Position numbers and translations under genes: made by a program
DNA from: a phage
Sequence record: S81553.1
Length of the DNA stretch: 912 bases
Reading direction: 5' to 3' (one strand)
Shown here: one piece after another, positions 1 to 912 of the stretch
Numbering within the stretch: position 1 is the first letter of the stretch
Layout: each line of letters starts with the position of its first letter
Notes under the pieces: generated by a model
Database searches by the model: none
What the model was told of the DNA's origin: nothing
Seen by the model: the letters and a program-made list of their open reading frames with translations, nothing else

Positions 1-30
1 GGGGGTAGGCCCCATAAGGGGCCTGCCTTC
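1..30 (+). promoter_or_regulatory. 5'-terminal stem-loop of an ssRNA phage genome (replication signal; its complement forms the 3' end of the minus strand)
   Basis: Seen in sequence: window starts GGGGG; positions 1-13 (GGGGGUAGGCCCC) pair with 18-30 (GGGGCCUGCCUUC) around an AUAA loop (14-17), giving 13 contiguous pairs including G-U wobbles at 3-28, 2-29 and 6-25. Established: the same architecture, G-run plus terminal hairpin, is found at the 5' end of Qbeta and MS2 genomes. Confidence 0.75.
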
Positions 31-41
31 AACGCACTACA

Positions 42-47
42 GAGGAG
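42..47 (+). promoter_or_regulatory. Shine-Dalgarno ribosome-binding site for the maturation gene
   Basis: GAGGAG at 42-47, 5 nt upstream of ATG at 53-55. Confidence 0.8.
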
Positions 48-52
48 AATCT

Positions 53-912
53 ATGCCAACCCTTCCGAGAGGACTTCGCTTCGGATCGAATGGCGAAATC
101 GTAAATGATTTCAACGCGCTCTGGTTTCCAGAGCGCGAAGCATTCGATCTCGAGCTCGGCTCCTACACACTCACTGGTTACGTAAGTAATCAGCCTGGCT
201 ATACGACGCGCATGCGTAATCCTCGCATGCATTGCGTTCGTACACCGCACAGAAGTACTGTACCTGTTAACCATTTTGGTTATAGGCCAGTTACGACTGT
301 TGAGTATGTTCCAAACGGAACTTTCATCCGCCTAGATGGGGATGTAAAGTTTTCCGGTGGATCGGTTAGTGGGTCGCTTAAGCTAAACAACTTCGTTGTT
401 AACTTAGCGTCACAGGGCGGCTTCGATTACCAGTCGGTAATCGGACCAAGGTTCTCGTCGCAATTCTCCGCGTTTAGTACCAAGTATGGTGCTTTGCTCG
501 GGGAAGGGAGAGAAACACTTAGTTATCTTCTCCTGCTGTTTCGCAGAATGCGTGAAGGGATCCGTGCCGTAAGGCGCGGTGATCTCAAGCGTCTCAGGAA
601 TCTGATACGTACATTCGAACCACGGTCCATTTCTGGCCGACGGCAACGAACGACGTTCTCAGAGACCTATCGCGATCGACTCGTCAACGACGGGTGGAAA
701 GACAGTAGTGCGAGTGACCTGTGGTTAGAGTTCCGATACGGACTGATGCCGTTGTTTTACGACATCAAGTCTGTAATGGAGGACTTCATGCGTATCCATA
801 AGAAGATCGCGAAATTACAGCGATTTTCAGCAGGACACGGTAAGCTTGTGACGGTTAAGGGTAGGTTCTTCCCTGACCCGCACTTCGCTATTGAGGTCAC
901 CGCGGTGTTACA
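53..912 (+). CDS. A2: Maturation protein A2 (pilus-binding/maturation protein, lysis effector in Qbeta-like phages); N-terminal 286 codons, truncated at the 3' window edge
   Basis: Seen in sequence: ATG at 53 with SD; frame 2 is open with no stop through codon 286 (ends 910; 911-912 are a partial codon). Translation MPTLPRGLRFGSNGEIVNDFNALWFPEREAFDLELGSYTLTGYVSNQPGYTTRMRNPRMHCVRTPHRSTVPVNHFGYRPVTTVEYVPNGTFIRLDGDVKFSGGSVSGSLKLNNFVVNLASQGGFDYQSVIGPRFSSQFSAFSTKYGALLGEGRETLSYLLLLFRRMREGIRAVRRGDLKRLRNLIRTFEPRSISGRRQRTTFSETYRDRLVNDGWKDSSASDLWLEFRYGLMPLFYDIKSVMEDFMRIHKKIAKLQRFSAGHGKLVTVKGRFFPDPHFAIEVTAVL. Established/recalled: Qbeta A2 begins MPKLPRGLRFGADNEILNDFQELWFPD and contains RTPHR, RPVTTV, FSAFNAKYG..GEG, LLLRRLREGYRAVKRGDL, LWLEFRYGLMPLFYDI and RFSVGHG in the same order. 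The MS2 A protein carries a related WLELQFGWLPLMSDI motif. Comparison is from memory, not a database search. Confidence 0.9.
   Translation, partial: MPTLPRGLRFGSNGEIVNDFNALWFPEREAFDLELGSYTLTGYVSNQPGYTTRMRNPRMHCVRTPHRSTVPVNHFGYRPVTTVEYVPNGTFIRLDGDVKFSGGSVSGSLKLNNFVVNLASQGGFDYQSVIGPRFSSQFSAFSTKYGALLGEGRETLSYLLLLFRRMREGIRAVRRGDLKRLRNLIRTFEPRSISGRRQRTTFSETYRDRLVNDGWKDSSASDLWLEFRYGLMPLFYDIKSVMEDFMRIHKKIAKLQRFSAGHGKLVTVKGRFFPDPHFAIEVTAVL

Follow-up and report, generated by a model that had tools for sequence, protein, structure and literature searches.

The A2 protein of phage Qbeta, known from a crystal structure (PDB 5MNT) and from cryo-EM structures (5VLZ, 5VM7 and 7LHD), is a well-described counterpart of the protein treated here, with a beta region that lies outside the capsid and an alpha region that lies inside it, on the genomic RNA (PMC12856241, PMC13483237). 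Pilus binding is a function of the beta region (PMC12856241, PMC13483237), and the alpha-helical part binds the RNA through two areas of positive charge (PMC8067240). According to what PMC12856241 relays of Cui 2017, the MurA contacts fall within residues 30-120 of A2, and for lysis the portion 1-180 suffices. The A2 protein of phage NL95 resembles that of Qbeta in sequence (46-47% identity), in the order of its beta and alpha elements, in two motifs that serve below as anchors (RGDL and LWLEFRYG), and in the position of its gene, but differs from it by a block of 22 residues that Qbeta lacks, so that the loop has about 11 residues in the one (Qbeta) and about 33 in the other. Closer still are the A2 proteins of group IV phages and contigs (SP, X07489/NC_004301; FI, NC_028902; HB-P22; HB-P24; BR1; metagenomic sequences), which are 73-88% identical to that of NL95 and share with it the place of the insertion, the conserved positions within it, and the RNA hairpins formed around it. 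SP-type genomes differ from NL95 in carrying 8-9 more residues (TGNKVEVRP) in the loop of one of these hairpins, hairpin B. In the wider PF03863 family, the loop that separates the G anchor from the W-L-E motif is, as in NL95, net positive and variable in length; its inserts show no sequence similarity to that of group IV and hence apparently reflect independent events.

The window, the whole stretch of 912 nucleotides analysed here, is identical (100%) to nt 1-912 of the NL95 record AF059243.1. The next nucleotide matches are to FI strains (77-86%) and SP (76%), and Qbeta matches over a patch of 120 nt only, at 71%. NL95 is classified as Qubevirus faecium, in genogroup IV of the F-specific RNA coliphages, of which SP and FI are fellow members. 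The window opens with the 5' UTR and continues into the A2 (A-protein) maturation/lysis gene, of which it holds 286 codons (nt 53-912, plus strand, as are all features below; AF059243.1 annotation at 100% identity); the full coding sequence of the gene spans genome nt 53-1381 and encodes 442 amino acids. The record calls the A-protein a minor coat protein and notes that it is "involved in particle maturation and bacterial lysis", and its annotation places A2 as the first gene of a genome of about 4.2 kb, followed by coat, read-through (A1) and replicase genes and with no separate lysis gene. The 286-residue window product matches PF03863 (Phage_mat-A) with 103.3 bits against a cut-off of 25, in two stretches broken at the site of the insert, and phmmer aligns NL95 A2 1-441 with Qbeta A2 1-420 (5vlz) collinearly and over the full length (E = 1.2e-110). 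The window product is a Qubevirus A2, a member of PF03863, and the NL95 protein itself. Elsewhere in A2 the NL95 record holds a suspicious, locally frame-shifted stretch (aa 352-358).

The feature under study lies between the two anchors. Upstream is RGDL (nt 575-586, aa 175-178), in the helix that precedes the insert, with G176, D177 and L178 invariant in a nine-sequence alignment of groups III and IV and G176 at least 90% conserved in a set of 21 sequences whose identities go down to 20%. Downstream is LWLEFRYG (nt 719-742, aa 223-230), which begins 12 residues past the insert at the start of a long helix; no motif of the maturation-protein family is better conserved, and W224, L225 and G230 are invariant in the same 21 sequences. 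The 44 residues in between (nt 587-718, aa 179-222, KRLRNLIRTFEPRSISGRRQRTTFSETYRDRLVNDGWKDSSASD) had been delimited exactly, in position and sequence, by the first-pass annotation, which gave Qbeta a counterpart of about 22 residues between the same anchors; the Qbeta sequence that it cited was right (RALRRVIQSYHNGKWKPATAGN, 22 residues), and the excess of about 22 residues that it had reported is a single 22-residue gap in both phmmer and MAFFT alignments. The gap falls in Qbeta between H191 and N192, opposite NL95 P190-V211 (phmmer against 5vlz and 5mnt; MAFFT), is the only long one in the phmmer alignment of the two proteins, and comes out alike in MAFFT alignments of 9 and 17 sequences. 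The insert relative to group III is defined by HMMER and MAFFT as 66 nt, or 22 codons (nt 620-685, aa 190-211, PRSISGRRQRTTFSETYRDRLV), with an exact placement that is ambiguous within about aa 186-212. Searched on its own against Pfam, the 44-residue segment yielded no domain.

All 12 group IV sequences examined (NL95, HB-P24, HB-P22, FI, SP, BR1, five Logan contigs and one metagenome contig) carry the insert, with a length of 22 residues in the NL95, FI and HB types and 30-31 in the SP types, which have an extra block T-G-N-K-V-E-V-R-P of 8-9 residues (24-27 nt) at the same place. MAFFT alignment with Qbeta, M11, MX1, SP and FI confines it to group IV: Qbeta, with its shorter segment, M11 and MX1 (three of three group III phages) are without it, as are all eight outgroup proteins. 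These represent four lineages, P0008, P0011/12, P0013-15 and P0016, of which the first, an uncultured one, is 55-57% identical to both group III and group IV, and the others show identities of about 45%, about 33% and 26%, respectively. Throughout group III and the four outgroup lineages the G and W anchors are 24-25 residues apart, a fixed spacing among close Qubevirus relatives at what is a variable site in PF03863. Since the insert is absent from group III and from all four outgroup lineages, parsimony places its gain on the group IV stem; on this sampling it is a derived insertion, not an ancestral element that Qbeta has deleted. The tentative assignment of the stretch to an SP/FI-type lineage, made from the segment's length, was borne out, the window being NL95 and the longer segment occurring in every A2 of SP, FI or NL95 type.

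Several possible sources of the added nucleotides were considered and rejected. Intragenomic duplication found no backing in a blastn-short comparison of nt 601-700 with the NL95 genome, which returned chance matches of 7-11 nt only; a host origin found none in 5,426 E. coli genomes, where the insert has no match; and an embedded gene is not indicated, with no plus-strand ORF of at least 20 aa in another frame overlapping nt 587-718. At the peptide level, RTFE (186-189) is faintly like TTFSE (200-204), a likeness with no support at the nucleotide level.

The insert is the fastest-evolving and least conserved part of A2. Among six group IV isolates, its mean pairwise amino acid identity is 0.54, compared with 0.81 for the rest of the protein, and the NL95 insert differs from those of its nearest relatives at 5-8 of the 22 positions. 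In the same isolates pN/pS is 0.52 in the insert versus 0.27 elsewhere, so that selection on it appears relaxed yet purifying, and P190, G195, F202, Y206 and D208 are largely kept within group IV. More widely, 68 diverse maturation proteins (viral and metagenome contigs, a few of them near-duplicates) have inter-anchor segments of 7-82 residues (median 26), without exception net positive (+1 to +10) and averaging 22% lysine plus arginine. Judged from this comparison, maturation proteins in general have a hot spot at the inter-anchor site, where length varies and basic residues accumulate, and the uniformly positive charge fits the AP205 principle that capsid-embedded surfaces of maturation proteins must be positive against the RNA (PMC10980823). 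The basic character of the insert itself is modest: it has six lysines plus arginines and two acidic residues in 22, against 61 lysines plus arginines in the 442 residues of A2 (binomial p = 0.07), and its net charge in group IV runs from +1 (HB-P22) to +5. The label of an arginine-rich segment given at first pass therefore holds weakly, for the 44 residues as a whole (11 lysines plus arginines, p = 0.03) and not significantly for the insert proper, part of the basic residues of the segment belonging to flanking helix positions that are equally basic in Qbeta.

Structural context came from AlphaFold2 modelling of P0001, a protein that shares 88% of its residues with NL95 and is numbered alike in this region. 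The model (21-sequence alignment, mean pLDDT 78.5) matches the Qbeta A2 crystal structure 5mnt in Foldseek with E = 7e-34. Its helices around the loop span 145-174 and 178-185 before it and 220-247 after it, and pLDDT drops below 50 only at 188-215, that is, in the insert plus a few flanking residues, a low value that, with an alignment of 21 sequences, is not in itself proof of disorder. A Qbeta model has helices at 147-176, 180-188 and 200-226 and, between the last two, a loop (189-199) that is also its least confident stretch (pLDDT below 50 at 190-197). Because the lowest-confidence loop sits at the same site in both models, the insertion would extend an existing flexible loop about threefold, and the suggestion of a lineage-specific loop agrees well with this inter-helix position. 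After the exit from the beta region past residue 120, the chain runs through a 30-residue helix, a short helix, the loop, a 27-residue helix and a long beta hairpin; with one helix outgoing and one returning, the loop should lie where the helical region is most distant from the beta region. This distal end of the helical part is reportedly the most conserved region, which is consistent with the invariant W-L-E-F-R-Y-G motif starting 12 residues past the insert. We infer that the loop is the capsid-interior tip of the alpha region, beside the RNA, a placement drawn from the helix topology of AlphaFold models and from general published descriptions. Of the "surface loop" proposed at first pass, the loop stands and the outer surface does not, chain topology leading one to expect the virion interior; the additional RNA contact proposed with it is plausible.

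The first-pass annotation had looked at the peptide alone. Here the same stretch was viewed as RNA too, by running RNAalifold on 6 and later on 12 group IV sequences and then counting the pairs explicitly (A6 columns). Upstream of the insert, hairpin 1 (nt 562-579, A6 columns 18-35; codons R-A-V-R-R-G) is 97.6% paired with two pairs changed on both sides, and is common to group III, being predicted also in Qbeta, M11 and MX1. The tip hairpin (nt 621-642, A6 columns 77-98) occupies the 5' part of the insert, over the codons P-x-S-x-x-G-x-x; 72.9% of its cells are paired, five of its eight pairs show changes on both sides, and around an invariant CC/GG core the stem sequence differs among strains. 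On its own, the single-sequence fold of nt 620-645 is not significant (-6.8 kcal/mol, z = -0.75). Hairpin B (nt 670-713; RNAalifold) has an outer stem, 670-674/709-713, and an inner stem of 7 bp, 679-685/689-695, closed by the triloop AAC (A6 columns 126-130/192-196 and 135-141/172-178). Its inner stem joins the last codons of the insert, R-L-V, in the 5' arm to the N-D-G-W codons in the 3' arm, is 98.8% paired in the 12 sequences, and has five of seven pairs changed on both sides. A larger hairpin (nt 596-668) suggested by RNAalifold with six sequences was not reproduced with 12.

Over all hairpins, 91.5% of cells are paired, compared with 34-44% when the partners are slid, and 13 pairs are changed on both sides versus 7.2 +/- 1.4 in shuffles, none of 500 shuffles reaching 13, with the caveat from the tool that covariation counts on related sequences may exceed shuffles without structure. 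Unusual stability was not detected in NL95 (z = -0.5 for nt 560-760; -0.75 and -0.85 for two hairpins), nor did either strand of the window match an Rfam covariance model up to E = 1. From the comparison of sequences, then, the same nucleotides are shown to be constrained as RNA as well, the hairpins being maintained by compensatory changes of which some are non-synonymous, so that peptide sequence and RNA structure co-evolve here.

The reading we favour, with a probability of roughly 60%, is that the insert, derived and tolerated, extends a flexible basic loop at the tip of A2 that is buried, making a non-specific electrostatic contact with the packaged RNA, and that its RNA is co-constrained as hairpins. 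An in-frame insertion of 66 nt on the group IV stem lengthened the inter-helix loop of the alpha region, and the SP types have a further 24-27 nt at the same place. The loop would link the two long antiparallel helices (145-174 and 220-247) at their distal ends, and would thus probably sit at the tip of the alpha region, buried in the capsid alongside the genomic RNA and immediately ahead of WLEFRYG. Models and substitution patterns suggest a flexible loop of net positive charge on which purifying selection persists in relaxed form, and it would most likely act as a tolerated non-specific electrostatic contact with, or a charge-neutralising tail towards, the packaged RNA.

Selection at the level of RNA offers a different reading, possible if unlikely, in which the extra nucleotides serve the genomic RNA mainly as hairpin modules, for its folding, its packaging or the control of A2 translation, and the encoded peptide is carried along because a flexible loop tolerates it. 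Hairpin B and the tip hairpin are indeed kept by compensatory changes that include non-synonymous ones, in the very part of A2 whose peptide evolves fastest. The extra 27 nt of the SP types lie exactly within the hairpin B loop, where they form a 4-bp stem of their own (GGUC/GACC in SP, GGUU/AACC in BR1, with the loop shortened to GUGA in L091), and the SP hairpin is thermodynamically outstanding (z = -3.5). A hairpin with x-G-x-W codons as its 3' arm recurs at this position in M11, in a weaker form in Qbeta, and in the P0008 lineage, where it again stands out in stability (z = -4.2). The likeness of the hairpin B 5' arm in SP (GCUUACC) to that in the P0008 lineage (ACUUACC) was considered as possible homology and judged uninformative, because any perfect complement of conserved G-K-W codons reads so. 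Against selection mainly on RNA stands the fact that the genomes of ssRNA phages are base-paired nearly throughout, so that conserved hairpins are the expected background here and do not single the site out. Moreover, a pN/pS of 0.52, below 1, together with the conserved residues and the net positive charge, argues for some constraint on the peptide, and the fact that distant proteins bear basic insertions here too, though unrelated in sequence, points to a property of the protein.

A role in packaging of the kind played by a coat-binding operator was also examined and rejected. Coat proteins of the Qbeta type need an adenine at the 3' position of a three-base loop, on a stem of about 8 bp. 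The NL95 operator at the replicase start, AAGC-A-UGUC AAA GACA GCUU, has a short stem and a three-base loop, as does hairpin B, which differs from it in having no bulged A and in ending its loop on C or U instead of A (AAC, AAU, AGU or GAU, with a 30-nt loop or branch in the SP types). As it lacks the 3' loop adenine, hairpin B is, under the rule just given, not an operator-like packaging signal. A related proposal, that the insertion was primarily an innovation in RNA structure, of two hairpin modules with a third nested in SP, and that the peptide was co-opted as a basic tail at the buried tip of A2, is speculative and in our judgement rather unlikely. It has a bearing on one pair of residues: V211 and D213 of NL95 (GUC/GAC) are A and G in other strains (GCC/GGC), two non-synonymous changes that preserve a single base pair, and if RNA came first they would be a case of RNA pairing dictating the choice of amino acid. 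A stronger variant of this proposal would have the longer loop change the way in which, within the virions of group IV, A2 interacts with the 3' RNA domain or with the internal coat dimer.

We regard as improbable that the insert has a specific function in group IV, as an ordered element that makes a sequence-specific contact with the group IV 3' UTR, that contacts the internal coat dimer, or that tunes MurA inhibition or host range. Such a function would accord with the retention of the insert in every group IV genome sampled, metagenomic ones included, and with the pattern P-x-[ST]-x-x-G-[KR]-x-x-x-x-x-F-[SN]-x-x-Y-[RC]-[DG] that runs through the 12 group IV sequences; DSSP, moreover, assigns a short helix at 202-208 in the P0001 model, which together with the conserved P190, G195, F202, Y206 and D208 could form a small ordered element. 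It accords less well with a length that is not fixed (22, 30 or 31 residues) in the least conserved part of A2. The functions mapped so far also lie elsewhere: in Qbeta, the MurA contacts (30-120) and the lysis-sufficient portion (1-180), as relayed from Cui 2017, are upstream of the insert, and pilus binding belongs to the beta region. With the MurA residues and the pilus-binding region thus placed, the insert falls outside both and is probably not part of either binding surface, the beta region being the site of the two. A2 is said to be among the proteins that Qbeta and SP can exchange. As far as its title conveys, Priano et al. 1995 deals with three Qbeta and SP proteins that are interchangeable, which also speaks against a function specific to group IV.

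That there is no real insertion, the difference being an alignment artefact, a sequencing error in NL95 (conceivable, given the frame-shifted aa 352-358 of its record) or a deletion in Qbeta only, is refuted by the presence of the same insert in 11 further genomes and contigs of group IV, each sequenced independently, by the invariance of both flanking anchors, and by the constant 24-25 residues between anchors in all three phages of group III and in the four outgroup lineages.

As an observation on sequence, the insert is an ordinary and already known lineage marker: the sequences have long been in GenBank (SP, X07489; NL95, AF059243), the difference in A2 length between groups III and IV is visible in any alignment, and its significance is accordingly small. 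What is added here is its derived state, its marking of group IV without exception, the recognition of its site as a hot spot, and its co-constraint with RNA hairpins. In the sample studied, the insert of 22-31 residues serves as an exceptionless empirical marker of group IV, as distinct from an official criterion, and would be usable as a simple discriminator of genogroups III and IV within the A2 gene; the loop site, in turn, is a candidate insertion-tolerant position for the engineering of Qbeta-like A2 proteins.

The amino-acid covariation at A2 residues 211 and 213, which lie in and just after the 22-residue group IV insertion (aa 190-211), falls within the inner stem and loop of an RNA hairpin, hairpin B (window 679-695, codons 209-214). 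These residues are V and D (GUC/GAC) in NL95, A and G (GCC/GGC) in the other NL95/FI-type strains, and T and G (ACC/GGU) in SP types, and each of the three combinations leaves a hairpin B base pair intact; RNA pairing is the driver of this covariation. A second hairpin, over the R-A-V-R-R-G codons (window 562-579), is kept with compensatory changes in group III and group IV alike and, being conserved in both, predates the insertion. Further upstream, the 5' UTR (window 1-52) starts with GGGGG, has a potential terminal hairpin in the GGGGGUAGGCCCC / GGGGCCUGCC region, and bears a Shine-Dalgarno-like GAGGAG (43-48) ahead of the A2 AUG at 53.

An uncultured Qubevirus-like A2, P0008, encoded by two Logan contigs (L119:62-1327 and L120:24-1289), is roughly equidistant from group III (56-58%) and group IV (53-56%), and its lineage may be a third at the species level. 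It is devoid of the insertion, and a strong RNA hairpin (z = -4.2) occurs at the site that the insertion occupies in group IV.

Downstream of the window, NL95 A2 reads TRPALSV at aa 352-358 (NL95 genome, ~nt 1106-1130), whereas all other group III and IV A2 proteins have I-GQLYRH, a block containing a near-invariant L and Y. Nucleotide alignment of this region with the group IV relative HB-P24 reveals a difference of +1 nt followed by one of +2 nt, and the +1 frame of NL95 here reads LGQLYRS; this compensated local frameshift is either genuine or an artefact of the sequencing behind the GenBank entry. In the SP-like metagenome contig L091 (MAVO01000006.1), the first ~60 nt (within L091:1-110) duplicate an internal A2 piece, YIPDGTYVRLDGHVKFEG, joined 5' of the true 5' UTR, a fusion that is probably an assembly chimera; the SP-type sub-insert of this contig is one residue shorter (TGNRV-VRP). 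The translation of M11 A2 (AF052431.1) contains an X near its C-terminal end (TQXIKR), which indicates an ambiguous base in the deposited record.

Across 68 diverse maturation proteins (L011-L113), the inter-helix segment between the conserved anchors G176 and W224, within which the insertion lies, ranges from 7 to 82 residues, with 82 in protein L074, and its net charge is positive in every one of the 68. For the family as a whole, this segment is a hot spot of basic insertions.
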